A DNA stretch of 12,687 nt from Gemmatimonadota bacterium (GTDB taxonomy: Bacteria; Gemmatimonadota; Gemmatimonadetes; Gemmatimonadales; GWC2-71-9): positions 1 to 12,687 of the forward strand of contig JAZDCZ010000262.1 in assembly GCA_036679605.1 (NCBI GenBank), given 5' to 3'. Under the pieces are notes generated by a model, which worked only from the letters and a program-made list of their open reading frames with translations, made no database searches and had not been told where the DNA came from. Shown in pieces: positions 2 through 12,263 of this stretch (the first letter of the stretch is position 1; each line of letters opens with the position of its first letter). The translations under genes were made by a program, and so were the position numbers.

Positions 2-991
2 TCGGCCGGTAATGCGGGCGAGTACTACACCCCACGTGCTGTCACCGCTTTCATGGTGGACCGCATCGACCCCAAGCCCGGCGAGACCCTGTTCGATCCC
101 GCCTGCGGCACCGGCGGATTTTTGACTTGCGCCATCCGTCACATGCGTGAGCGCTATGTGAAGCGGCCGGAGGACGAGCAGACGACGCAGGCGTCCTTAC
201 GTGCAGTGGAGAAGAAACAGCTTCCTCACATGCTCTGTGTCACCAACATGCTGCTGCATGGCATCGAAGACCCGAGTTTCGTGCGCCACGACAACACACT
301 GGCCCTTCCCTACATTAGTTGGGAGCGCAAGGACCGGGTGGACATCGTTCTCACCAACCCACCCTTCGGTGGGAAGGAAGAGGACGGCATAGAATCCAAC
401 TTCCCGCAGCACTTCCGCACGCGCGAGACGGCGGACCTGTTCCTTGCTCTCATTATTCGTTTGTTGAAGCCGGGTGGGCGTGCCGCTGTGGTGTTGCCAG
501 ACGGCTCTCTGTTTGGCGAGGGTGTGAAAACCCGGCTCAAGGAACAGCTGATGGAGGAGTGCAATCTCCACACCATCGTTCGCATGCCCAACTCTGTCTT
601 CCGCCCCTATGCCTCCATTGGCACCAACCTCCTGTTCTTCGAGAAGGGTGAACCGACGAAGGAGACCTGGTTCTATGAGCACCGCGTGCCCGAGGGGCAG
701 AAGGCCTATTCGATGACTCGGCCAATCCGGCTGGAACACCTCCAGCCCTGCATCGACTGGTGGGGTGGGGCCGAGCGCAAAGGGCGCGAGGAGACGGAGC
801 GCGCGTGGAAAGTCACGACGGAGGAGGTGAAGGCGCGCGGCTACAACCTCGACATCAAGAACCCGCACACGGTTGAGGACGACCACGGCGACCCGGAAAA
901 ACTGCTGGCGCAGCTAACCAGCGCCGAGGCTGAGGCGGCGAAGCTACGCGACCGGCTCAAGGTTATCCTGGGGGAGGCCCTGCTGCGATGA
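2..991 (+). CDS. hsdM: Type I restriction-modification N6-adenine methyltransferase subunit, 5'-truncated by the window edge
   Basis: The frame is open from base 2 (SAGNAGEYYTPRAVTAFMVD, the conserved GE/QYYTP motif). Motif I is FDPACGTGGFL and motif IV is NPPFGG. The stop overlaps the hsdS start (ATGA). Confidence 0.95.
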   Translation, partial: SAGNAGEYYTPRAVTAFMVDRIDPKPGETLFDPACGTGGFLTCAIRHMRERYVKRPEDEQTTQASLRAVEKKQLPHMLCVTNMLLHGIEDPSFVRHDNTLALPYISWERKDRVDIVLTNPPFGGKEEDGIESNFPQHFRTRETADLFLALIIRLLKPGGRAAVVLPDGSLFGEGVKTRLKEQLMEECNLHTIVRMPNSVFRPYASIGTNLLFFEKGEPTKETWFYEHRVPEGQKAYSMTRPIRLEHLQPCIDWWGGAERKGREETERAWKVTTEEVKARGYNLDIKNPHTVEDDHGDPEKLLAQLTSAEAEAAKLRDRLKVILGEALLR

Positions 992-2706
992 ACGCGGAAC
1001 AGCTGCTTACCCATTACGACCGCATTGCCGACGCGCCCTGTGCGATACCGCGTCTGCGGCGGTTCATTCTAGATCTGGCTGTGCGTGGCAAGTTGGTGCC
1101 GTGGGACCCGAACGATGAACCGGCGTTGGAACTGCTGCAACGAATAGCAGAGGAGAAGGCAAGGCTGGTGAGAGCGCGTGAAATCAAAACGCAGAAGGTG
1201 CTGCCGCAGCTAGAGGAAGAGGAGATTCCGTTTCAACTGCCGAACGGTTGGCACTGGGCCCGCCTCGGACTGTTGGCGTCCTATATACAACGCGGCAAGT
1301 CTCCGAAGTACGTTATCAGCAACGGACTACCAGTCATCTCTCAGAAATGTATCCAGTGGTCTGGCTTGGACCTAAGCGTAGCGAAGCAGATCGACGCTGA
1401 CTGCCTATCCAAATATGAAGATGTCCGCTTTCTACGTGACGGCGATCTGCTTTGGAACTCGACGGGCACGGGCACCATCGGACGGCTGATCCGGTTAGCG
1501 TCGCCACCTGAGAAGCTGGTTTGCGATAGCCACGTAACAGTTGTTCGGTGCCTCCTTGTCGATCCTGAGTATATTCGGACGTGGCTGCGGTGCGACGAAG
1601 TCTATGGACTGATCGAGGAACGAGCAGCGGGGTCAACAAATCAGGTAGAACTGACTGCGGCAATGGCACTCAACCAACCTGTTCCCCTCCCGCCTCTCGC
1701 CGAGCAGCATCGTATCGTCGCTAAGATGGATGAACTGATGGTGCTGTGCGACCGGTTGGAGGCGGCACGTGAGGAGCGCGAAGCAACGCGTGACCGGTTG
1801 GCGGTGGCGAGTCTCGCTCGATTGAACTGTTCTGGCCCGGATAGACAAGCCTTACGCAAACATGCCGCTCAGGCGCTGGAAATCCTCACCCCTCTGACCA
1901 CCCGTTCAGATCAGATCAAGCTTCTCCGCCAGACTATCTTGAACCTGGCGGTGCGTGGAAAGTTGGTGCCGCAGGACCCGAGCGACGAACCGGCGTCGGA
2001 ACTGCTGAAGCGTATCGCGGCAGAGAAGGCAAAGCTGATAAACACGGGGCAGATCAGGAAGCCAAAACGCTTGGCCGCGATCGAACCGGAGGAGCCTTTA
2101 TTTGATCCGCCGCGTGGATGGGTGTGGTCGCGCCTTTTGGAGATCAGCCGAAGAATCCACTATGGCTTTACGGCATCAGCAAACCGAGCGATTGACGATG
2201 TTCGACTGCTTCGGATCACGGACATTCAGGACAACAAAGTCGAATGGAGTTCGGTGCCGGGCTGCGAAATCGACGAAAAGACGCTGCCTCAGTTCAAGCT
2301 TCAAAAGGGGGACGTTTTAATTGCGCGTACTGGCGGGACGATTGGCAAATCATTTTTGGTAAGAGACCTCCCGGTTACTGCGGTTTTTGCTTCCTACCTC
2401 ATCCGAGTGTGCGTTTTCTGTGGAGTCTACGACCGGTATCTGAAGCTCTTTCTGGAATCCCCGGTGTATTGGTCACAGTTGGAAGACGGTGCGCGGGGTG
2501 CTGGCCAACCCAACGTCAATGGGCAGACGCTCGGTAAGATGCTCGTACCCCTTCCCCCCCTTGCCGAGCAGCGCCGCATCGTTCACAAGGTCGATGAGTT
2601 GATGGCGCTGTCGGATAGGCTGGAAACACAGCTGGTCCTGGCACGAGATGCGTGTGGCCAACTGCTTGAAGCGGTTCTTCATGAAGCTCTCGCTTCGGCG
2701 GCGTGA
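988..2706 (+). CDS. hsdS: Type I restriction-modification specificity subunit with two TRDs, EcoAI/type IB-like layout
   Basis: It has a duplicated conserved block ILDLAVRGKLVP.DP.DEPA.ELL and two P.PPLAEQ.RIV.K.DELM.L.DRLE coiled-coil motifs, and is coupled to hsdM. Confidence 0.95.
   Translation: MNAEQLLTHYDRIADAPCAIPRLRRFILDLAVRGKLVPWDPNDEPALELLQRIAEEKARLVRAREIKTQKVLPQLEEEEIPFQLPNGWHWARLGLLASYIQRGKSPKYVISNGLPVISQKCIQWSGLDLSVAKQIDADCLSKYEDVRFLRDGDLLWNSTGTGTIGRLIRLASPPEKLVCDSHVTVVRCLLVDPEYIRTWLRCDEVYGLIEERAAGSTNQVELTAAMALNQPVPLPPLAEQHRIVAKMDELMVLCDRLEAAREEREATRDRLAVASLARLNCSGPDRQALRKHAAQALEILTPLTTRSDQIKLLRQTILNLAVRGKLVPQDPSDEPASELLKRIAAEKAKLINTGQIRKPKRLAAIEPEEPLFDPPRGWVWSRLLEISRRIHYGFTASANRAIDDVRLLRITDIQDNKVEWSSVPGCEIDEKTLPQFKLQKGDVLIARTGGTIGKSFLVRDLPVTAVFASYLIRVCVFCGVYDRYLKLFLESPVYWSQLEDGARGAGQPNVNGQTLGKMLVPLPPLAEQRRIVHKVDELMALSDRLETQLVLARDACGQLLEAVLHEALASAA
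1075..2037 (+). repeat. Internal ~93-bp direct repeat within hsdS (1075-1167 and 1945-2037)
   Basis: CTGGCTGTGCGTGGCAAGTTGGTGCCG..GACCCGAACGATGAACCGGCG aligns with CTGGCGGTGCGTGGAAAGTTGGTGCCG..GACCCGAGCGACGAACCGGCG. These encode the conserved regions flanking the TRDs. Confidence 0.85.
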
Positions 2707-2790
2707 GCGAGCCTGGCCATGAGGAGCCGCAACGTGATCCAGGAGGCCAGTCCATACCGTCATTCGCTCAGTTAGTTATCGCTCGCAAGA

Positions 2791-3528
2791 CTATGCCACA
2801 CGCGGTCTGGCCCAGATCCAACCCTCTTTGACGGCCAGAGCGTGGTCTTCGGGAGCGAAGCAACTCCCGTCGAGGAAGTCGAAACCGGCCAGCACGCAGA
2901 TCGCTGCGTCCAGCACATGGTCGCTGGACACGAGCTGTGTGCACACGTCAGCATCGAACAGCATTCTTGAGGTGAGGTCCTTTGCGATCTCCGCTCGCTG
3001 CGACTCGCGCCCCGTTTTTTTGTACTGCTTCGAACGGAGTCCGTGGGCGGAAAGGGTGACGGTGGGGTAAACCTCGATCACGGAGGGATCTGTCACCATC
3101 GGTTCCCAGGCAAGCGGTATGGGCAATTCGGTCGCGGCTCGAAGTTCGCCGAGAAACTGAACTGCTGCATGCGCGGTGCGCGCAATGTGATCAGCCCCAA
3201 CATCAAGCGGTTGTCTGTCGAGCTTCTGTTTGATGACACGATCGGTCTCGCGGCGAAACATCTGATTTGCCGGCACTGCGATGGGTTGTCCCGCCGTGTG
3301 CTTATTGAGATTCGAACCGAGCGGCGCAGGCCAGCCTAGAGGTGCGTCAAGCGCAAGCAGGCAGGCATCTCCCAATGGCATCCATGACATGACCTTCTCA
3401 AGGACGGTGGAATGACTACCAAGCCGATCAACAGCCAGGAGCCTCCTAGGAGTCGATGTAGAAAATTCGCCTACTGCAAGGCCGATGTTCTTGGGGTCAG
3501 TCGCGCAATCGACTCCGATGACAATCAC
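2791..3528 (-). CDS. DUF429-family predicted RNase H-like nuclease (cassette 8)
   Basis: Motifs are IGVD (N-terminal), LALDAPLGWP, VIEVYP and DHVLDAAIC. The GTG start has a GAGGTGAG RBS and lies just after a GTTGCAC core. Confidence 0.75.
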   Translation of the reverse strand: MIVIGVDCATDPKNIGLAVGEFSTSTPRRLLAVDRLGSHSTVLEKVMSWMPLGDACLLALDAPLGWPAPLGSNLNKHTAGQPIAVPANQMFRRETDRVIKQKLDRQPLDVGADHIARTAHAAVQFLGELRAATELPIPLAWEPMVTDPSVIEVYPTVTLSAHGLRSKQYKKTGRESQRAEIAKDLTSRMLFDADVCTQLVSSDHVLDAAICVLAGFDFLDGSCFAPEDHALAVKEGWIWARPRVA

Positions 3529-3548
3529 CGCTCACCTCGGTTGTCTCG

Positions 3549-3610
3549 GTGCAACGTCTTTACGTTCAGCGGTGAGGCGAAGCCTCGTCGGCTGAAGCGC
3601 CTTCCCGGGT
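3549..3610 (-). mobile_element. attC site 7, with degenerate R'' box
   Basis: The minus strand reads ACCCGGG-AAGGCG-CTTCAGCCGACGAGGCTTCGCCTCACCGCTGAAC-GTAAAGAC-GTTGCAC. It has a typical attC L''/L' stem and an R' GTT, but the AAC of R'' is replaced by GGG. Confidence 0.7.
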
Positions 3611-4309
3611 CGCTCGTGGTTCCAGCATTCCAATCAGCTGGCGCAGGTTCCTAATTTGCCGATCAATATCCGCCGCACGTGGTGTCTCAGTGCCGTGCAC
3701 GAGGTTGTTTCGGAACGCGCGCAGAGAGTCCCACAGCGTCGCGGCCTCACTAGACACGCCTTCAAGGAATTCCTGTTTCCAATAGTATGTAAAGTCGTCC
3801 TTCGGTGGGAGAAGCGTGCGGAGGCTGCGGTCGAACCTCGTCCAGAGCTGCAAGAATTCGCCGGTCTTCGTGTGAATAACAGTTTTTTCGTTGACGTGGG
3901 GAACATCACCGAATAGATTCTCGAACAACGCCAAGGCGACCTGGAAGTATGCCTCTACTCGGGCGCGCTCCACGGTAACTCCGTTGCCAGAATGGTAAAG
4001 CTGATTTCGAAGCCGGTGATACCACTCGATGTCGCCCAGGTCGACGCCGGTCAACTTATCGGCGGCGTAACGATCCAGCATGTCCAGCAGGGCCGGGAAC
4101 GATTCGCTGGCTGCCTCTAGTTCCTGGCGGCCAGGTCCATTCGTGCCACGCGCTCGCTTCGGGAGACCCAGGTGGGTCTTGATCGTTAGCTCAACCGCGT
4201 TGTCGATGCTGACCATCGCGATACGTCGATCAAAGTCTTCGCCCAAGCCGAGATGGTCGGCTGCGTGTTGCAGTAGCTCTCGAGGGCCATCTGTCCAAGG
4301 TCCGCTCAT
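3566..4309 (-). CDS. Putative HEPN-domain protein with two RxxxxH motifs, 247 aa (cassette 7)
   Basis: The real start is probably ATG 4309 (MSGPWTDG, AGGA RBS, 11 nt after a GTTGGGA core). It has an N-terminal D..VE motif, RNQLYH and RNNLVH. Confidence 0.65.
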   Translation of the reverse strand: MSGPWTDGPRELLQHAADHLGLGEDFDRRIAMVSIDNAVELTIKTHLGLPKRARGTNGPGRQELEAASESFPALLDMLDRYAADKLTGVDLGDIEWYHRLRNQLYHSGNGVTVERARVEAYFQVALALFENLFGDVPHVNEKTVIHTKTGEFLQLWTRFDRSLRTLLPPKDDFTYYWKQEFLEGVSSEAATLWDSLRAFRNNLVHGTETPRAADIDRQIRNLRQLIGMLEPRATREGASADEASPHR

Positions 4310-4320
4310 TGTTCCTGTCT

Positions 4321-4398
4321 TCCCAACTGTCGAACTCCACCGGCCACTAGGGGGCGCAAACCGCCGAGTATCGGTCCGGTGGCGAGTTCCGGTTCGGC
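4321..4398 (-). mobile_element. attC site 6, overlapping the DUF5131 3' end
   Basis: The minus strand reads GCCGAAC-CGGAACTCG-CCACCGGACC...GGCCGGTGG-AGTTCGACA-GTTGGGA. Its R'' GCCGAAC is the exact complement of GTTCGGC at the start of this cassette (6015-6009). Confidence 0.75.
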
Positions 4399-5126
4399 CC
4401 GCCTTGCCACCGTGTCTTCGGCTTGGGCATCTCGCTCCATGTGACCCCATCCAAAACGCGACCACTCGGCTTCTTGCGAACACCACCCCATTGCTTGAAG
4501 AAGAACGGCACCTCGAGGTGTACACACTGATCACGGATCTGACGGACCCAAGAAACATCGACCGGCCGTGCGCCGGGGCCAGACTCACCACCGGCGATCA
4601 CCCAGTCGATGCCGGTGAGCGACAAAGACGGCAGAGCAGAGAGCAACGGTTCGAGCGACAGGAATCGAACCCCGGATGGAACACGCCGCAGCAGTTCGAT
4701 ACGTTCGTAGTACTCCTCGGTCTCTACACTGACCCCTGCCCAAATCTGTTCCGGCCACGGAAGGCGATCGGCAAGGGACAACAGTCGTTCTGGTCGTTTC
4801 GTCAGGATCTGGAAAGTATGCTGAGGCGCGGCGGCCATCGTCTTGAAGACGCTCTCGATGAACGACGTGGGTACGTGTTCATGGAAAAGGTCGCTCATCG
4901 AGTTCACAAAGATTAGCCTAGGCTTTCGCCATGACAACGGGGCGTCAAGAAGGTCTCGCTGAAGGGTCACCGTAAACCCATGTCGATACCTTGGTTGTCC
5001 CATTGCCTCTAGACGCTTAGCCATTCTTTCTGCATAGCAGTACTTGCAGCCTGGACTCACCTTCGTGCACCCGGTTACGGGATTCCACGTAGCCTCAGTC
5101 CACTCGATCGAGGATGTTTGAGCCAT
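4347..5126 (-). CDS. DUF5131 (phage Gp37/Gp68-like, radical-SAM-like three-Cys motif) protein (cassette 6)
   Basis: Motifs are [61 protein letters not shown] and PFFFKQWGG. Confidence 0.92.
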
Positions 5127-5135
5127 TCGGATTTC

Positions 5136-5990
5136 CTAGAAGAGGCTCCCCTGCGCGTTTGCGTACTTCGAGGCTTGTCTCCAGAAGCGCTCGCCAAGCG
5201 GATGCCGACTGAAAAAGGCTAGGCGGTAGAGAGGGAGATTCTTCTTGTAAGACCGTATCAGCTCCGTACGAGCGATGCCCTCGTATCTGTATCCCAACTC
5301 CGTCATCGAGGCACCGAAGCTGTCTGTCAGGAAGCGATCGAACGTAATCCGCTGAGCTTGTGCAGCGGACCAGTCGATCCGCCAGGGCCTACCGAGGAAG
5401 CGCTCTACGGTCTCGTCCGCTGGTTGCAGGTATACCTTGTCCACATTGCGAGTCGCATCCATTCCCGTCGGTATGAGGATAAGAAAATCGATGAAGCGCT
5501 CTGCGGCAAGTGTGCGGATCGTTTCGAAACGGAGGTCGCGCATTCTGAACGGATCGACTAAGCAGAATGTTAGTACTTTCTGGCTTCTGGAGGGCGGCGG
5601 TAGCTTGGAGAGAATCTCATCAGTATTTGTATTTGCGTCGCCGGGCACAAAGTGCACGTTAATATCAGTAGTGAAGGTGGCCATGCGCTGTTCGAGAGCG
5701 GCAAGCTTGCTCGATTCCTCTTCGCAGAAGACGTAACAGTCGAAGTGGTCTGGCACTCCCAACGCGACGAACGGTGAGCCCCAGGTCAGACGACCTGAGC
5801 CGCGGATTCTGGACACGCCTGGTCCCGCGAAGAGATCGAGATACGCCCGGCAATCCCACTTGCCTTTCATAGCCGTAGAAAACAACGCGGCGTATATGCC
5901 CACCAGCTTCAACTTGTCTTCTGTCCAAGGGCCGACCTCCGAAACGACGAGGTCGTCTGGTCGAGGCGGAGATGCCGAATCGACGAGCAT
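5136..5990 (-). CDS. tcmP: Three-Cys-motif partner protein TcmP, SAM-dependent methyltransferase fold (cassette 6)
   Basis: Motifs are GPWTEDKL, YLDLFAGPG, GSP, GDAN, FCLVDPF and YRLAFFSRHPLG. It lies immediately upstream of DUF5131, the usual partner arrangement. Confidence 0.85.
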   Translation of the reverse strand: MLVDSASPPRPDDLVVSEVGPWTEDKLKLVGIYAALFSTAMKGKWDCRAYLDLFAGPGVSRIRGSGRLTWGSPFVALGVPDHFDCYVFCEEESSKLAALEQRMATFTTDINVHFVPGDANTNTDEILSKLPPPSRSQKVLTFCLVDPFRMRDLRFETIRTLAAERFIDFLILIPTGMDATRNVDKVYLQPADETVERFLGRPWRIDWSAAQAQRITFDRFLTDSFGASMTELGYRYEGIARTELIRSYKKNLPLYRLAFFSRHPLGERFWRQASKYANAQGSLF

Positions 5991-6008
5991 TAGCTAGAAC
6001 TCAAAGCG

Positions 6009-6070
6009 GCCGAACTGCCTCGGCATCAGCTGCGGCAAGCAGCGCTGTCAGACGCATGCCGTTGATACTC
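6009..6070 (-). mobile_element. attC site 5, with degenerate R''
   Basis: The minus strand reads GAGTATC-AACGGCATGCGTCTGACAGCGCTGCTTGCCGCAGCTGATGCCGAGGCA-GTTCGGC. It is closely related to attC2 (shared AACGGCATGC...GCTGAT). Confidence 0.7.
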
Positions 6071-6136
6071 ATCAAGCCCTCCTCCCGTACCCACCCATTA
6101 GGCGGCGTTCGGCTCAGAAGCATCCACAGCACCATG

Positions 6137-6523
6137 CTACAGCGGCGGAGCAAAACGTATCCAGTCTGCTCCGAAGAATAAGATCGTCGGTATCACTGCG
6201 TGAACGCCATTGTTGACAAACTCCGTCTCGAACTGAAAACCCTGGTTGTGGAAACATACGAAGCGCACCCAGCGAGCCAGAATACTGCTGACAGTAGAAT
6301 CCGAGTACTCCGTTTCGCGGTCGAAGTAACCGCGCCAGTTCTGGAAATCCACGGTAGCCTGTACGGATTCTGTCGGCAGGCCAAATTTAACGCAACAGGA
6401 AGGTCGAACAATATGATCGACCGGGACAACCGGGCCATTAGCCACGCCCCAGAACTCTAGACTTCGTTCGTAGTCATGCTCAGCGCAATCCACAAATACC
6501 GTGATAAGTCGGCTTCGATGCAT
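6137..6523 (-). pseudogene. Probable chimeric remnant (cassette 5): N-terminal ~28 aa of a VOC/glyoxalase-like protein joined to unrelated sequence
   Basis: It has a strong RBS (GGAGGAG). MHRSRLITVFVDC...SLEFWG resembles the start of glyoxalase-like proteins, but the rest has no recognisable VOC motifs. It is flanked by damaged attC sites. Confidence 0.4.
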
Positions 6524-6549
6524 GGCTTCTCCTCCTAGTGTCCCTCTCC

Positions 6550-6576
6550 CGCGCCAGCAGCAGTGCCGTGTTAGAC
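6550..6576 (-). mobile_element. attC site 4, truncated (R'' and L''-like part only)
   Basis: The minus strand reads GTCTAAC-ACGGCA-CTGCTGCTGGCG. The gene's TAA stop lies within R''. No L'/R' half precedes the next RBS. Confidence 0.6.
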
Positions 6577-7332
6577 CGGGGGCCTCCCGCGCATGGGATT
6601 GAACCTGAGGCAGTCGTGATAGAACTCCGGAAGTCCGGAGTTGGCATCGTGCTCGTCAATGTGGCCGATGATACTTTCCCACGAAAGAAGATCTACCACG
6701 ATCGCTTCGAGCGTTGGAAGAAACGAGTCTTTGAACCAAGCATCGTGCGTTCCATCGTACTGAGCGACACGCGCCTTGACCTGGCTGCGGATTTTCTTCT
6801 TGGTAACAAAATCCTCGAAGACGCCGGATTGGATTTGTTGCTCGGGCGCCGCGACAAAGAACCCGAGCGAGTGGAGAGCCCTAGGCTGGATGCCAGCTAC
6901 CTGGACGACATGTGCAACGCAGGCGACGTTGCGAGCGGCCTGTCCATAACCGCTGGAGTTCTTGACCCCCTTGGAAAGGCGACTCCCGAGCTTTGCTTCA
7001 ATGACGACGAATTGCTCGGCGTCCTTGCGCAGGGTCGCCTCGCCGCTCTCGCCGGGAGAGATCTCGAAGTGCCCCATGACGCCGTCAGCATGGGTGAAGG
7101 ACTCGGCGAGCGTATCTGTGCGCCGAGTCGGCAAGAATTGGGAGGCAAGCAACGCCTCCGAGTACCAGCGTGCGCCCTTCTGAACAGCGAACGGATGACC
7201 TGTGGTACGTTCTCGCTCAAACCAGTCGAGTACTAGGCGGAGTAGCCAACCTTCGTTGTAGAGCTCGGTAGGTGGAAGCACTGTCGCCTCCGTCCCGCAT
7301 CTGAGCAGCAATTCGGCTACACGCTTCGACAT
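6571..7332 (-). CDS. Hypothetical PD-(D/E)XK nuclease-like protein, 253 aa (cassette 4)
   Basis: The likely start is ATG 7332 (MSKRVAELL, GGAG RBS, just after the GTCAGAC core). Motifs are NEGW, THADGVMG, VVIEAKLGS and YGQAARN. Confidence 0.6.
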   Translation of the reverse strand: MSKRVAELLLRCGTEATVLPPTELYNEGWLLRLVLDWFERERTTGHPFAVQKGARWYSEALLASQFLPTRRTDTLAESFTHADGVMGHFEISPGESGEATLRKDAEQFVVIEAKLGSRLSKGVKNSSGYGQAARNVACVAHVVQVAGIQPRALHSLGFFVAAPEQQIQSGVFEDFVTKKKIRSQVKARVAQYDGTHDAWFKDSFLPTLEAIVVDLLSWESIIGHIDEHDANSGLPEFYHDCLRFNPMRGRPPV

Positions 7333-7342
7333 TCGCTCCGCC

Positions 7343-7413
7343 GTCTGACGTTGAGCCCAGCTGCCGTTTTTGAACGCAGCGAAAAACCGGTCAGCTGGAA
7401 ACCGATGTGAGGT
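7343..7413 (-). mobile_element. attC site 3, both cores mutated (AAC>CAC, GTT>GTC)
   Basis: The minus strand reads ACCTCAC-ATCGGT-TTCCAGCTGACCGGTTTTTC...AAAAACGGCAGCTGGG-CTCAAC-GTCAGAC, with a long inverted repeat and a bulged A in L''. Confidence 0.8.
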
Positions 7414-7435
7414 GCGACCGCAGTCACTGCCACTT

Positions 7436-7936
7436 TCAATCCATGAATAGAGGAATGTGGGCAGCAATATCCTCATACGGCACATAACAATCAAACTTCA
7501 CCACATCAGACTGGTTGCGCTCATAGAATTCCTTTGGTGCTACCAGGACAGTCTGGAAGTCGGAGTAAGAACGGTATTTGGGGTCACCTAGCCATTGGCG
7601 TGCTCGATACGGATACATATCGGGTTGCAGAGGCTCGAATTTACCGTCCTTTTTCTTGTTTTCAATATGTAAGGCGAATGCTGATCCATCTTCAGCCTTA
7701 AAAACTACAAGAATATCGGTTTCAGATTCTCTGACTACAACCTCGTGTTCACCGGTAACCGGATTGATCCAATCCAGTTTTATCGGTCTCCATGGATGGT
7801 TCGAACGGGACCAATGGTAGCGACCTCCCGAGTTCGCAAACTTTGTCCTTCGAAGGAACCAGGAAACAAACTGAGGGGACTCCTTGAATGCTGCATCCAA
7901 GGCAAGATCGAGGTCCTTTTCGGTCGCTTCAGTCAC
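7436..7936 (-). CDS. PD-(D/E)XK superfamily nuclease-like protein, ~166 aa (second gene of cassette 3)
   Basis: The GTG start at 7936 (or 7939) overlaps the 3' end of the upstream ORF. Motifs are EKDLD, ETDILVVF, LHIENKK and QPDMY. Confidence 0.65.
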   Translation of the reverse strand: MTEATEKDLDLALDAAFKESPQFVSWFLRRTKFANSGGRYHWSRSNHPWRPIKLDWINPVTGEHEVVVRESETDILVVFKAEDGSAFALHIENKKKDGKFEPLQPDMYPYRARQWLGDPKYRSYSDFQTVLVAPKEFYERNQSDVVKFDCYVPYEDIAAHIPLFMD

Positions 7937-8684
7937 CACAAACCCTTGCAACCACTGGTGAGCCGGCGGTCCATAGACCGCGGCGAGAAAGGTCGGCAAG
8001 GAAGTCTCGGACGAACGATTCCGAGACCTCCGCGCTACCGGCCGACTGTCCGTTCAAATGGTCGCCTACCTGCTGCCAAGTGGCGAAGCCTACACGCAAC
8101 TCCGAGCAAAGCTCGCGGTAACCCCGCTCCAAGGATCTAGCCTCCCGATTGCGCGCGAGCTTCTCCGACAAAGGGGCCCGCGCGAGTGCGTTTGCGAGAA
8201 CCTCGCCATTCTCGGGCGCCTCACGTGCAGGAGACCAGTGTTGAGCGAAAGGCTTCCCGGTGATGTAGACCAGCGACGGCGCCTTCGGGTACGGATCGCT
8301 GGAAGCGAGCTTGGCATGCAAGAGCGCGTACTTCTGGGCCTGCTCGATCCTCGTCTTTGCCTGAACCTTCAGTTCAACGAAGACCCGCTCGCGGAGCGAT
8401 TCAAGCTGGACATCGGCCTGAGTGAAGCTCGCGTCCTGCGCGTTCTGAACGTCTAGGGGCGCTCCGCGCACTGCAACGGCGCCTGTCAGCGAGAGAAGTG
8501 ATCGAGTCGCTGCTGGGGGTAGAGCGTAAAGCAGGATGTTGAATAGGAAGTTCAAGGGCACTTCTTGCGATCGAATCTTGCGGTAGAAGGCCGTGGTGCC
8601 GGGACCAAGGTGCTGCGGCTCCCAGCGGTAGTGTTCGACATATCGATAAACAAACTCGGGCCAGCTGTTTCGGTCGATGGGCAT
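7929..8684 (-). CDS. PD-(D/E)XK superfamily nuclease-like protein, 251 aa (first gene of cassette 3)
   Basis: The ATG lies 8 nt after the GTTAGGT core. Motifs are QEVPLN, TQADVQL, VFVELKV, QAQKY (QxxxY) and a C-terminal ATWQQV. Confidence 0.65.
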   Translation of the reverse strand: MPIDRNSWPEFVYRYVEHYRWEPQHLGPGTTAFYRKIRSQEVPLNFLFNILLYALPPAATRSLLSLTGAVAVRGAPLDVQNAQDASFTQADVQLESLRERVFVELKVQAKTRIEQAQKYALLHAKLASSDPYPKAPSLVYITGKPFAQHWSPAREAPENGEVLANALARAPLSEKLARNREARSLERGYRELCSELRVGFATWQQVGDHLNGQSAGSAEVSESFVRDFLADLSRRGLWTAGSPVVARVCGD

Positions 8685-8692
8685 GCGCCGCT

Positions 8693-8752
8693 ACCTAACC
8701 GCTTACCGATCAGCGGCCGGCGTAGCCGGTCCGCTGCATGCCGTTGTTAGAC
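8693..8752 (-). mobile_element. attC site 2, canonical 60-bp element
   Basis: The minus strand reads GTCTAAC-AACGG-CATGCAGCGGACCGGC-TAC-GCCGGCCGCTGATC-GGTAAGCG-GTTAGGT. It has RYYYAAC/GTTRRRY cores, and the HAD stop codon TAA lies inside R''. Confidence 0.92.
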
Positions 8753-9403
8753 CGCCACACGCCCGATGACAAGTCCAACAAGATCGCGCCAACTAGTGAC
8801 AGTCATTTGGTGCGCGGTAGTTTCCTTCTTCCCTGCATCGAATCGGAGGAACTCGACCCCAGCAGCCATCGCCATCTGCCGATCAGTATCAGTATCGCCA
8901 ACCATCAGAGAGGAGTCAGCGTCAGCCTGGAGAGGCCCGCAAATCAGATTAACCAACATGTCGGGATACGGCTTGGGTCGAGGGGCATCCCGATCCGTTA
9001 CGATAGCAACGATACAATCCTGAAGACCTTCACGAGTCAGTACCCTGTCAACATGCTGGCGCTGCGCCGTAGTCGCTATCCCAATATGACACAGACCAGC
9101 CAACCTCCGGATGCCCTCAGCGGCGCCCGAAAAGAGGGGGACTTTTGCCAACTCTGATTCCCATCGTGTATCCTTGGCCGCGCGAAGCTTCCTCTTGACT
9201 TCCGGCAAAAGACCCAGACCCTCAAACATCCGATTGCCCGAGTAGCCGCGGTACAGATTCCTCACCAAAGCCTCTTCGACCGCGTGTGGTACCGCAACAT
9301 CGCGCGCTGCACCTCTCCAGGCTTTCTCCTGTAAGGCCATGGAATCCACGATTACCCCGTCGTAGTCCAGGGCGACTGCCACTAATCCGTTCTTCGAATT
9401 CAC
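8747..9403 (-). CDS. HAD-superfamily phosphatase, subfamily IA (cassette 2)
   Basis: Motif I is ALDYDGVIVDS, motif II IATT, motif III RPKPYPD and motif IV MVGDTDTD. The GTG start overlaps the upstream stop (GTGA). Confidence 0.9.
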   Translation of the reverse strand: MNSKNGLVAVALDYDGVIVDSMALQEKAWRGAARDVAVPHAVEEALVRNLYRGYSGNRMFEGLGLLPEVKRKLRAAKDTRWESELAKVPLFSGAAEGIRRLAGLCHIGIATTAQRQHVDRVLTREGLQDCIVAIVTDRDAPRPKPYPDMLVNLICGPLQADADSSLMVGDTDTDRQMAMAAGVEFLRFDAGKKETTAHQMTVTSWRDLVGLVIGRVAV

Positions 9404-10086
9404 ACTTTTCCGGACGGGTCCCTTTGAGGGGCATCATGCCACGGGAGGAGACCTCGCTTGTCGGAGTCGAGGACGCTAATGTCAACCGCAAATACTGACG
9501 AAGGAGACCGGATCAGGCAGAAGGTCCTATGATCGATCCCCAATTGGGAGAGGTATTCACTAGCCTTCTTGATCGTTCCTCCCGTGTGGACCTCAGGGGT
9601 GACGAGTAGCACCCGCTTACCCGTGATCGCACCGGTCACAGATGTGGCTCCCGGGAGCGCCTCGACGAGAGAGACATCTAGTCTTTTTCCTTCCCACTTG
9701 AATGTCCGATTGACTACATAGACCAGCGGCTCCTCTCCCCGTTTAGCTGCGAGCATCTTTGCGATCATTCCTGCGATAATCGCGCCGCCAGGACCAAGCC
9801 CAATCACTAGGTCTGGGCCGAATTGTACCAGGCGATCAATGTTGGTTTGAAGCAGCCACGCCAAGAGGGTCCAGCGAACCGGGCGTAGACCAAGGACGGC
9901 TATGGTCGGCAGCACAGAAAGGAGCAAGGTTATTATGACTGTTGTCGGGCCACCCTCCACACCCGCTGCACTCGCGAGCCCCCAGAGGACACCGAAGACG
10001 GAAGCGGTGATGACAAATGCGCTGCTTGCCGTAGCAAGCCCCCCGGAGAACAAGTGGTTGAGCAGGTTTGCAATCTGACGCGTCAC
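9400..10086 (-). CDS. Two-TM N-terminus fused to a type I phosphoribosyltransferase-like domain with a variant PRPP-binding loop (cassette 2)
   Basis: Hydrophobic segments are AFVITASVFGVLWGLASAAG and VIITLLLSVLPTIAVLGL. PRT-like motifs are PDLVIGLGPGGAIIAGMIA, GKRVLLVTPEVHTGGTI and LLPW. Confidence 0.75.
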   Translation of the reverse strand: MTRQIANLLNHLFSGGLATASSAFVITASVFGVLWGLASAAGVEGGPTTVIITLLLSVLPTIAVLGLRPVRWTLLAWLLQTNIDRLVQFGPDLVIGLGPGGAIIAGMIAKMLAAKRGEEPLVYVVNRTFKWEGKRLDVSLVEALPGATSVTGAITGKRVLLVTPEVHTGGTIKKASEYLSQLGIDHRTFCLIRSPSSVFAVDISVLDSDKRGLLPWHDAPQRDPSGKV

Positions 10087-10127
10087 TCCACGAACCTCTT
10101 TTTTCTGATCCCTGCAATTCGTTGGCG

Positions 10128-10245
10128 GTCTAACGTTCAGGTTCAGCCGCCCAAAATCCGACGCGGATTTCTTGGTAAAGTGACGCGCAGCGACACAAAA
10201 AAGCGTGTAGCGGGTTTTGGGTCGGCCTGGAACCGCTTGTTAGGC
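10128..10245 (-). mobile_element. attC site 1, canonical 118-bp element
   Basis: The minus strand reads GCCTAAC-AAGCG-GTTCCAGGCCGACCCAAAACCCG...CGGATTTTGGGCGGCTGAAC-CTGAAC-GTTAGAC, with perfect consensus cores and a long imperfect hairpin. Confidence 0.93.
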
Positions 10246-10259
10246 CCAAAACCCACTAC

Positions 10260-11069
10260 TTAGCCAATTCGCTGGCGGCAATTTGCCGCACCACATTTGC
10301 AATCAAATGGTTTCGTAAATTTACCCTCTAAGATTGTATAGTCGATCGTTATTTCTTCGCCCTTCTTCAGTGTGCGTTTCGCATAGAGCCATCGATCAGA
10401 AAACTCTGCGTTTGGGCTACATGAGTGGTTTAGATTCCTAAGCGGATCTCGTGGTTCAACGATCTTCCCATCAAACGTTAGGGAAAATGCAGTTGGTTCG
10501 TTGACATACCTGCCTTCAAAATAGTGAATAATCTCAGATTCAAAAAAGTCCTTATCCGCGAGTACGCCGCTCCCATGTATCTGTTGACTAGTATTTACGA
10601 GCACTCTATTTCTTAACTCCACACAACCTTGGCGAATCCATACGTAACTATCAGCATTCGGCCGCTGTAAATCATCATCCATCCAGGAATAAAAGCCCTT
10701 AAGTATTTCTACTTTGTCCTTACCACCTCCCGATAACGTAAAACTGCCTCGATCTTTTCGATGTTCCGATGTTGCTGGTTCGTATATTGCTGCAAATACA
10801 TTTGCTTGTACTCTTCCGGTACATTTATAAACAATGCCGCCGTTCTTTTCTCCGTATTCTACAAACGCTGAAACTTTGCGCCCGAGCTGCCACAAATGCA
10901 CTGTTTCTTCGTGCAATCTACCTTCTTTAGCGAAATATGTCGTCCATGTTCCATTTAAGTCCTCTACAGGCATCCAGACTCGACGAACAACGCTGGCTAT
11001 TGCCTTTTGTAATTTCCAAAGGCGATAAGCCGCGCCCAGTGATTTAAGGGTAATTGAGTCTGACATCAT
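10260..11069 (-). CDS. SET + post-SET domain protein with an N-terminal beta-strand-rich (Cap15/S-2TMbeta-like) domain (cassette 1)
   Basis: SET motifs are IHGSGVLA, NLNHSCSPN and GEEITIDY, and the post-SET motif is CKCGAANC. The N-terminus has DLNGTW...DRGSFTL...LKGFYSW. It has a GAGGA RBS and is visibly AT-richer than its flanks. Confidence 0.8.
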   Translation of the reverse strand: MMSDSITLKSLGAAYRLWKLQKAIASVVRRVWMPVEDLNGTWTTYFAKEGRLHEETVHLWQLGRKVSAFVEYGEKNGGIVYKCTGRVQANVFAAIYEPATSEHRKDRGSFTLSGGGKDKVEILKGFYSWMDDDLQRPNADSYVWIRQGCVELRNRVLVNTSQQIHGSGVLADKDFFESEIIHYFEGRYVNEPTAFSLTFDGKIVEPRDPLRNLNHSCSPNAEFSDRWLYAKRTLKKGEEITIDYTILEGKFTKPFDCKCGAANCRQRIG

Positions 11070-11109
11070 GGTCCTCGTGGGTAATGACCTTTTCGATATG
11101 AATCATTGC

Positions 11110-11135
11110 GCCTAACCAAGTTCTGATCCGTCCCG
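11110..11135 (-). mobile_element. Putative attI site (core GTTAGGC at 11116-11110)
   Basis: The minus strand reads CGGGACGGATCAGAACTTG-GTTAGGC. It lies between the first cassette and the divergent intI remnant and has no attC-type hairpin. The core is complementary to the attC1 R'' GCCTAAC. Confidence 0.7.
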
Positions 11136-11232
11136 GCTCCGGTTATCACACGCATTGTCTCGGACCGGCGACACAAACCTGTCTATACTCCAACAACTTG
11201 GCTTGGCGCAAGGCAAGGGTGCTGAAGATGAT

Positions 11233-11415
11233 ATGCAGCGAGCTTATCCCTCCACGATGGAGCTGCGGCTGCTTGCCCAAGTGCGGGAGGACGATTCGTA
11301 CGAAGCGCTACAACCGACGCACCGAGAACACCTAGGTTCAATAGAATCGGCGGTTCATGTACTGCCACGGCAAACCTCATTCGACGTAGACGGTGAAGTC
11401 GAAGTCCGCGGCTAG
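11233..11415 (+). pseudogene. intI: Truncated integron integrase remnant (N-terminal SAM-like domain only), with 2 frameshifts and 3 internal stops
   Basis: Reconstruction: LRLLAQVRE / +1 at 11290 / TIRTKRYNRRTENT*VQ*NRRFMYCHGKPHST* / -1 near 11391 / GEVEVRG. This matches the IntI N-terminal consensus RLLDQVRE.IR.KHYS.RTE..Y..WIRRFI.FHGKRHP.EMG..EV..FL. It is divergent from the cassettes. Confidence 0.85.
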
Positions 11416-11448
11416 GCCGACGGTGTCGTCTGCGATTTCCGCCTGCAC

Positions 11449-11516
11449 AATTACGCAGGAATTACACAAACGCCCGCTAGCCTAGTCGCCGACTATCACC
11501 TAAGTATTTGATTTAC
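11449..11516. mobile_element. Putative genomic-island attachment end at the tRNA-Phe 3' side
   Basis: A direct repeat AATTACGCA/AATTACACA (11449-11457, 11460-11468) and the AT-rich TAAGTATTTGATTTAC (11501-11516) directly abut the tRNA 3' end. Confidence 0.45.
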
Positions 11517-11520
11517 AAGG

Positions 11521-11593
<73 letters not shown>

Positions 11594-11679: not shown

Positions 11680-12066
11680 TTAGCCGACGAGCACCAGCTC
11701 GAGCCCTACGCGCTTCATCGTCCCGAAGTCGGAGTCACGAGAGAGAATCGGCACTCCGTGTGCGAGAGCGTAGGCCGCGATCAAAAGATCCAGCGATTTG
11801 ACCGTCGAGCCACGCCGTCCGAGATAGGAACCGAGATCTCCCGCTTCGTTCCACAGCGCGGACGGCTGTTCAAGGTTGTGACAGCCGTCCAGGAGGGGCA
11901 GTACCTTGGTCCGATCCTTACGAGATCGCAATCCGCGGCGCAGCTCGGTGACCACAGGCCCACACAAGGCGACTTCGTTCGTCTCGAGCAAGTCCGCCAC
12001 GATTCCGGCGAGTGGTTCCCGCCCGCGGAAGAAGTCGATCCAGGCGGAGGTGTCGACCAGAATCAT
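11680..12066 (-). CDS. vapC: PIN-domain toxin VapC
   Basis: Motifs are MILVDTSAWI, VVTEL.RG, SLDLLIAA and SRDSDF. It overlaps the antitoxin stop (ATGA). Confidence 0.93.
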   Translation of the reverse strand: MILVDTSAWIDFFRGREPLAGIVADLLETNEVALCGPVVTELRRGLRSRKDRTKVLPLLDGCHNLEQPSALWNEAGDLGSYLGRRGSTVKSLDLLIAAYALAHGVPILSRDSDFGTMKRVGLELVLVG

Positions 12067-12263
12067 CGCCGCGTTTTGCCGAGGTCGAGTTCGAAACGCA
12101 CCTTTCCACGAAGCGCTCGGAGCGCGGAGCGTTTGTCACTGCGCTCTATCTCCTTCAGGCCGGCAACAATGGTCGGTGTGATGCCGAGTCCCGTTATACG
12201 GGTGGCTTTCTCCAGCACGCGCTTCGGAACATTGACGGTTATCTTCTTGATCGGTTCTCCCAT
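12063..12263 (-). CDS. vapB: VapB-type antitoxin, ribbon-helix-helix-like
   Basis: It is a 66-aa basic ORF (KITVNVPKRVLEKA...LRGKVRFELDL) coupled upstream of vapC. Confidence 0.85.
   Translation of the reverse strand: MGEPIKKITVNVPKRVLEKATRITGLGITPTIVAGLKEIERSDKRSALRALRGKVRFELDLGKTRR

Follow-up and report, generated by a model that had tools for sequence, protein, structure and literature searches.

The window analysed here is a stretch of 12,687 nucleotides (nt) that makes up the entire contig C182 (JAZDCZ010000262.1) in the 6.7 Mb assembly of a Gemmatimonadota bacterium (GCA_036679605.1; 96.5% complete, 6.3% contaminated). Between positions 11069 and 2791 it carries 11 genes in eight units, all on the minus strand, as the initial annotation of this DNA had correctly located them, and these genes run convergently with hsdM and hsdS, which belong to a type I restriction-modification (RM) system. 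The array is a decayed integron, probably carried by a tRNA-Phe genomic island, with cargo that seems to lean towards defence, mainly against phages and other mobile DNA.

The region beside the first gene of the array contains the remains of an integrase gene. Positions 11117–11408 (plus strand) hold the attI region and the 5′ part of intI (tblastn E 5e-14). Two intact IntI proteins are encoded elsewhere in the assembly, on C73 and C407 (over 450 bits), and window positions 11110–11408 show 74–75% DNA identity to the 5′ ends of their genes over 300 nt. In a three-way alignment, identity starts exactly at the core GTTAGGC (11110–11116, minus strand), which fixes the position of attI where it had been proposed, with a core of the GTTRRRY type adjoining the 5′ end of intI; the bases just upstream differ from both intact attI sites. 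An open reading frame (ORF) of 86 amino acids (aa) had been called IntI-like, and its first part is; a one-base insertion and two TAG stops follow, and similarity is lost after about 100 codons. Because of this frameshift, the stops and the truncation, the integrase must be regarded as dead: the remnant descends from an integron integrase, lacks the catalytic domain and has lost the function. No Pc promoter was recognised, as no sigma-70-like site lies near attI (4 such sites in the region against 3.3 expected), and a promoter and terminator scan of the window stayed at background level. The intact integron on C407 (L010, 650–6584) has large cassettes, encoding a 1114-aa KAP-type NTPase similar to PifA and QatA and a 779-aa membrane HerA-like ATPase.

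Sites of attC were sought with a covariance model built from 20 sites hand-picked from nine other contigs, none of them from the window, with a hand-written consensus structure. In the model alignment, 88.8% of cells were paired and 12 of 20 pairs had changed on both sides; none of 500 shuffles reached the score of the alignment. The model detected at least 51 sites at E ≤ 0.01 among 150 scored candidates in the assembly. In the window, 16 matches reached E ≤ 10; the six best lie on the minus strand, in gene gaps, at six of the seven sites proposed earlier. Two of them, 10128–10245 (30.7 bits, E 9e-6; bottom-strand fold z −3.1) and 8693–8752 (45.7 bits, E 3e-9; z −2.4), are strong, so that at least two attC lie on the cassette strand; both have intact cores and are the only strict matches to RYYYAAC...GTTRRRY in the window, a pattern that had been attributed to all seven. 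The site at 7343–7413, for which a match had also been expected, is marginal (15.7 bits, E 0.026; z −2.2) and has both cores altered (ACCTCAC and GTCAGAC). At 6550–6576 (minus strand), only a left half was recognised by eye (R″ box GTCTAAC and an L″-like box), with no model match and a fold z of +1.1. The remaining three minus-strand sites are degenerate and weak: 6009–6070 (11.3 bits, E 0.27 over 6009–6066; z −0.9), which is similar by blastn (76–84%) to attC on C1 and C329, 4321–4398 (7.5 bits, E 2 over 4329–4398; z −2.1) and 3549–3610 with its eroded R″ box (7.9 bits, E 1.6 over 3556–3603; z −0.7). Thus, the two attC nearest to attI are intact and all distal ones are eroded. Together, the intI and attI homology and the ranking of the attC matches support the integron architecture that had been claimed, with the qualification that the integrase is dead and most attC are degraded; since only two to three attC look intact, most cassettes are probably fixed. 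A scan with Rfam, which has no attC family, matched only the tRNA in the window, and a generic repeat search found nothing useful. A separate array of the same assembly, on C350 and C432 (L015, L017) and C279, has near-identical 96-nt attC and one duplicated cassette; its genes mostly look secreted or membrane-bound and have no PADLOC matches.

The initial annotation missed the setting of the array, which lies at the end of a tRNA-Phe genomic island. The tRNA-Phe(GAA) gene occupies 11519–11593 (minus strand), and its 3′ 44 nt (11520–11563) are repeated exactly and in the same orientation on C295, which is the direct repeat that marks a tRNA island and its boundary. An 18-nt motif at 11450–11467 (plus strand), a possible integrase arm site, occurs at two places in the assembly when up to 2 mismatches are allowed, here and at the C295 att site, in each case beside the tRNA-Phe repeat. 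C295 overlaps C391 by 85 nt, and translations of the pair reveal a primase-like gene and, on C391, a tyrosine integrase; C391 breaks off after nine codons that look like the beginning of a plasmid HsdR. On the other side of the array, as had been stated, lie type I RM genes, namely the 3′ part of hsdM (2–991, plus strand; Pfam N6_Mtase E 2e-69; PADLOC MTase_I) and hsdS (988–2706, plus strand; Pfam Methylase_S; PADLOC Specificity_I E 1e-137). The simplest reading would be one island extending from C295 via primase, integrase and hsdR-hsdM-hsdS to the array.

A sister locus with the same layout of RM genes followed by convergent cassettes was found on C174 (L008, 1–6181), and we count it in favour of an island integron with defence-leaning cargo. 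It shares the first 114 nt with the window, its hsdM is 87% identical and its hsdS is different, with other recognition domains; a NucS-like gene (PDC-S11) is embedded there, two convergent cassettes include a 92% copy of window positions 7941–8699, and the other end is a 112-nt repeat common to C250 and C398. No substantial counterpart of the array was found in 30 relatives, where the best matches were tRNAs and elsewhere only short weak pieces. Logan contigs from one sequencing run cover 830–8330 and 8655–11545 with zero differing letters; the assembly itself probably came from the sample of this run, so that the agreement is not independent. Contig depth in that run was 11 for the array, 25 for the shared cassette and 19 for vapBC, which fits both two copies and two strains, depth in a probable source run being a weak measure. 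The vapBC toxin-antitoxin pair is located just outside the island (11680–12263; VapC above the NCBIfam cut-off), and in run X1 one contig joins 11651 to 12540 without it, which indicates a relative lacking the pair.

Cassette 1 (10260–11069, minus strand; 44% GC) encodes a predicted eight-stranded beta-barrel fused to SET and post-SET domains. The SET part scores above the cut-off of PF00856, and the NHSC motif (N213, H214, S215, C216), the catalytic Y243 and the zinc-binding post-SET cysteines C256 and C258 are invariant in 6 of 6 sequences. A search of 5.8 billion proteins gave nine matches, including the protein itself, five full-length relatives and three SET-only proteins; in metagenomes, ten loci were found, eight with barrel and SET (three as two ORFs, two identical to proteins already found) and two with barrel fragments. 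The structure model is of modest quality (pLDDT 62). The barrel-SET description given initially thus stands, while the kinship of the barrel is tied among three groups: its top structural match is Cap15 (7n34, Z 13.1, root-mean-square deviation (rmsd) 2.7, 98 residues aligned), and designed barrels and avidins tie with it at Z 12–13. In the Atlas, Cap15 was only a lead at 0.76. When the barrel was compared with three Cap15 proteins by hhalign, 102 collinear columns aligned with P 0.005; 1 of 60 shuffles scored higher, and the hhalign probability amounted to only 6.8%. The invariant Y95 and Y126 (P0001 numbering) align with Y153 and Y188 of the L071 Cap15; conserved pocket tyrosines, to which Y95 and Y126 may correspond, are described for Cap15-type barrels in a 2026 preprint (PMC13692257). 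None of eight barrel-SET members matched PF18153 (Cap15_CD_rec) at E ≤ 1, and the barrel profile found no Cap15 among Protein Data Bank sequences. An avidin control for the profile comparison was dropped, as no avidin was found in 401 genomes.

Cassette 1 has neither of the two N-terminal transmembrane helices that mark Cap15 or S-2TMbeta effectors (maximum hydropathy 0.6); one transmembrane helix was predicted in 4 of 10 homologues checked, including L026. No SMODS cyclase was found in the assembly and no relative of the barrel-SET protein in viral contigs. Homologue L026 lies near TIR, GIY-YIG and HEPN-AbiU2 genes, the one defence cluster observed, and L023 has an attC-like site directly downstream (17 bits, E 0.054). 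At L025, L027 and L029, the next gene after the homologue encodes a DOT1-like class I methyltransferase, a hint that the two methyltransferases may form a module. BurB, a bacterial SET protein whose structure was solved with methionine, is also among the fold matches of cassette 1. A literature search, whose coverage left out most subscription journals, found no description of a barrel-SET fusion. In our opinion, the protein is most likely a ligand-gated methyltransferase.

The second cassette comprises two genes on the minus strand. Unit 2a (9400–10086) encodes a phosphoribosyltransferase (PRTase)-fold protein (PF00156, 33.6 bits), predicted from hydropathy to be anchored in the membrane by two helices, and unit 2b (8747–9403) a HAD phosphatase (PF13419, 72.7 bits). 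The usual phosphoribosyl pyrophosphate (PRPP) loop has two acidic residues; in the family alignment of the membrane PRTase (59 representatives at E ≤ 1e-10), this loop is non-canonical, being TPEVHTG in unit 2a, with E in 37 and G in 58 of the 59 sequences. The same membrane PRTase and HAD pair occurs in a Phycisphaerales genome between housekeeping genes. Among 30 relatives hand-picked from 150 listed, mostly long ones, 17 were fused to a histidine phosphatase and one to PAP2; these fused relatives, with E values of 3e-9 or weaker, are only remotely related and may represent a sister clade. That the membrane PRTase is paired with phosphatases of three unrelated folds points to a conserved reaction yet to be characterised. 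Other relatives (P0104, P0071) are fused to DUF4062 (PDC-S60-like) or to an unannotated C-terminal domain. Outside the window, the broad PRTase profile found only the soluble core among the 150 rows listed for 401 genomes of the phylum.

Three further genes had been assigned to PD-(D/E)XK proteins, and these assignments fared unequally: that of unit 3a is borne out by structure, and those of units 3b and 4 rest on motifs. Unit 3a (7929–8684, minus strand; 61% GC) belongs to a family in which Q89, D91, E104, K106 and Q115 are invariant in 34 sequences. Its model (pLDDT 92) retrieved mostly nucleases, with McrC (Z 6.5, rmsd 3.6, 118 residues aligned), BspD6I and FokI in the top rows; in Foldseek, LmuA gave E 0.003 and no match reached E 0.001, and PDDEXK_4 was detected in 2 of 34 family members at E 0.026. 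A PD-(D/E)XK nuclease fold is thus supported for the model, its Z being middling and the list of matches being dominated by the restriction-endonuclease fold. Relatives were absent from viral contigs and from the plasmid search. The 92% copy of this unit on C174 stands behind a different attC and beside a different neighbour, an observation that bears on the mobility of the cassette. Unit 3b (7436–7945, minus strand; 47% GC, start codon uncertain) is a probable PD-(D/E)XK nuclease, whose motif ETD..HIENK is common with its homologue on a Methylibium plasmid. Unit 3 is probably two fused cassettes, since GC content differs (61% versus 47%), the closest homologues of the first part stop at about codon 241, and the match to the C174 copy breaks off at the junction. 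The Methylibium plasmid segment (L065, 573–4327) repeats the pattern of the window, with an N-terminal intI remnant, an attC (37.7 bits), HNH and Sir2 genes and the homologue of 7436–7945 near them.

Unit 4 (6571–7332, minus strand) is likewise a probable PD-(D/E)XK nuclease, with AD..E[AG]K..Q in 4 of 4 aligned sequences; its Atlas cluster contains 2309 unnamed proteins at 0.98, the nearest named ones being restriction endonucleases at 0.80–0.81, and the plasmid search was blank. Units 3b and 4 matched no family, showed no similarity to the unit 3a family and have motifs conserved in few homologues. Unit 5 (6137–6523, minus strand) is an orphan of 128 aa with a strong ribosome-binding site, possibly degraded; it had no Pfam, PADLOC, NCBIfam, PHROG or plasmid match and found only itself in 101 genomes. 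A likeness to N-termini of glyoxalases (VOC) received no support from any library and was rejected.

The calls of TcmP, DUF5131 and DUF429, like those of HAD, PRTase and SET, were above curated cut-offs, in agreement with the initial annotation. Unit 6a (5136–5990, minus strand) is the three-Cys-motif partner TcmP (TIGR04474, 125 bits over a cut-off of 53; PDC-M41A E 8e-21), and unit 6b (4347–5126, minus strand) is a radical-SAM-like DUF5131 protein of the Gp37/Gp68 type (PF07505, 331 bits; PDC-M41B E 1e-114), the sole match to PHROGs among window proteins. Unit 7 (3566–4309, minus strand), previously named HEPN, is a probable member of that group with two RxxxxH motifs (RNQLYH, RNNLVH) and a Pfam match below the cut-off (HEPN_Swt1, E 0.019, 15.7 bits against 27.5); a 47% homologue occurs on Leptospira plasmids. 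Unit 8 (2791–3528, minus strand) is a DUF429 protein (PF04250, 67.8 bits; PADLOC PDC-S44 E 9e-10) for which no terminal attC was found. In two other genomes (L068, L069), a DUF429-like gene, recognised by eye, stands directly before a unit 4 homologue, the two being 3 kb apart in the window; a functional pair is possible.

It had been proposed that the array is a defence library. Integron cassettes often encode defence, and the role of integrons as anti-phage stores is established (10.1101/2024.07.02.601686), in agreement with the general claim of anti-phage genes in such arrays. In the window, PADLOC matched 3 of 11 array genes to the candidate systems PDC-S44 and PDC-M41; the M41A and M41B components are adjacent and co-oriented, with strong hidden Markov model scores. 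As far as their source describes them (10.1101/2024.01.29.577857), such candidates are defined by embedding in RM, BREX or DISARM systems and are predicted rather than validated. These matches, the nuclease fold and the neighbourhoods of the homologues at L026 and L065 speak for the library reading, which is plausible; none of the cassettes matches a validated system.

Several observations weigh against a decayed island integron with defence-leaning cargo. The link from C391 to the window is unassembled, and a matching hsdR is absent from the bin. Besides the contamination given above, the bin shows 95 tRNA calls and almost double the size of related genomes (2.4–4.4 Mb in 30 relatives); recA and rpoB are each single, and for that reason the idea that it combines two complete genomes was rejected. 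PADLOC matched none of the 11 cassette genes to a validated defence system. The rate of 3/11 compares with 4/33 in a control set, not matched to the window set, of 33 ORFs adjoining 38 attC in ten other contigs of the assembly, two of those four being generic methyltransferase matches, and it falls to 1/7 when only attC-adjacent window genes are counted; the rate is not clearly above that of other arrays. Several barrel-SET homologues stand among housekeeping genes (L024, L028), and four of the seven attC calls are not significant on their own. The last point touches on the idea that true cassettes are confined to the first two or three units, the genes farther out being ordinary island cargo and the distal attC chance hairpins or terminators. 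In its favour, the scores of the three weak sites (11.3, 7.9 and 7.5 bits) lie close to background, the next unrelated match having 7.4 bits; another site is no more than a half, DUF429 lacks an attC, and its counterparts directly before the 6571–7332 homologue in two other genomes have no attC match there. We nevertheless find this idea very improbable, as the top six matches all fall on the minus strand in gene gaps, the site at 6009–6070 is 76–84% identical to clear attC on C1 and C329, and L″ and L′ boxes align to the attC model.

An alternative of another kind accepts the integron and questions its purpose: the cargo would be a mixed bag of metabolic and regulatory enzymes, selfish nucleases and orphans, and adjacency to RM genes would stem from traffic on a common island and not from selection for a defence store. 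The PRTase and HAD proteins would then be metabolic and SET would act on a small molecule or a host protein, a proposal that we hold as unlikely as the scenario of which it is a part. The scenario draws on the PADLOC comparison just given, on the fact that 283 of 401 genomes, this one included, have an ordinary soluble PRTase that the PRTase profile also matches, on a purine PRTase as the best solved relative of unit 2a, on BurB among the fold matches of cassette 1 and on the three barrel-SET homologues that precede a class I methyltransferase. Set against it are the 6 of 11 genes that are nuclease-like or PADLOC candidates (7 of 11 with the weak HEPN call) and the arrays on C350 and C432, which gave 0 of 11 PADLOC matches and whose genes, by eye, mostly start with signal-peptide-like ends. 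A more specific proposal would see in cassette 1 a new kind of immune effector, a Cap15-type nucleotide-sensing barrel that has lost its pore helices and in which a second messenger or an RNA-breakdown product switches on SET methylation of a phage or host protein, and in cassette 2 a separate new system, where the membrane PRTase-fold protein and its phosphatase drain or remodel nucleotide pools; taken as a whole, this is decidedly unlikely. We retain the decayed integron with defence-leaning cargo as the probable explanation.

Under the defence-leaning explanation, the attI and integrase data show that a former IntI inserted cassettes singly at 11110–11116, cassette 1 being the latest, before its gene decayed into a pseudogene. 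Beyond the second, the attC are degenerate, half-deleted or missing. Most cassettes would now be fixed cargo, and the two proximal ones may still be excisable by an intact IntI encoded elsewhere in the assembly; such action in trans is uncertain in view of the contamination, tRNA excess and size of the bin, the single recA and rpoB notwithstanding. The island would extend from the tRNA duplicate on C295 to the array and would serve mainly for defence. Likely means are DNA cleavage by the three PD-(D/E)XK proteins, RNA cleavage by the HEPN protein and growth arrest through disruption of nucleotide pools by the membrane PRTase and HAD, in a manner similar to that of ShosT. Cassette 1 would most likely act as a methyltransferase gated by a ligand.

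Comparison with known systems places the locus among chromosomal or island integrons that have lost their integrase. Such arrays are termed CALIN in IntegronFinder; they share with the locus the order of intI, attI and cassettes, the divergent intI, co-oriented genes and attC structure, and the locus differs by its integrase remnant of 100 codons, its recognisable attI and its place as the terminal part of a tRNA-Phe island, where it runs convergently with type I RM genes. The anti-phage cassettes of sedentary chromosomal integrons in Vibrio (10.1101/2024.07.02.601686) also include short nuclease-like and HEPN-like genes, and their attC recombine, whereas most attC here look dead; the likeness is not based on homology to Vibrio systems. 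PDC-M41 (TcmP and DUF5131) and PDC-S44 (DUF429), as outlined in 10.1101/2024.01.29.577857, have the same components, which appear here as integron units. Cassette 1 resembles the Cap15 or S-2TMbeta effectors (CBASS Cap15, Panoptes OptE; PMC12657218, PMC12657230, PMC13692257) in its predicted eight-stranded barrel, the collinear profile match and two aligned invariant tyrosines; unlike them, it has no two-helix membrane anchor, no cyclase nearby and no PF18153 match, carries a fused SET domain and is matched equally well by avidins on fold.

Cassette 2 couples a PRTase to a phosphatase in a defence setting, as do ShosT of ShosTA (PMC11961720) and OpnB/OpnC of Ophion (10.1101/2025.09.30.679545). 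ShosT combines PRTase and pyrophosphatase activities and thereby disrupts purine metabolism (PMC11961720), and PRTases act in Ophion and in DS-32. ShosTA is recognised by a fused hydrolase-PRTase toxin with a DprA-like antitoxin; cassette 2 has separate genes, a membrane anchor, a PRPP loop without the usual acidic pair, no DprA-like neighbour or radical SAM partner and no PADLOC match. By analogy, it may work like the PRTases of ShosT, Ophion and DS-32 without being a member of these systems.

As an architecture, the locus is ordinary and adds little, because integrons that store anti-phage genes have already been published. What it offers is a small set of candidates with natural boundaries, from a lineage without cultured members; the most novel are cassette 1 with its barrel-SET fusion and cassette 2 with its membrane PRTase and HAD pair. 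The barrel-SET protein is rare, with only five other full-length proteins among the 5.8 billion searched. Should the barrel sense a nucleotide, the protein would provide a connection, not found described in the searches made, between immune signalling in bacteria and methylation of the SET type.

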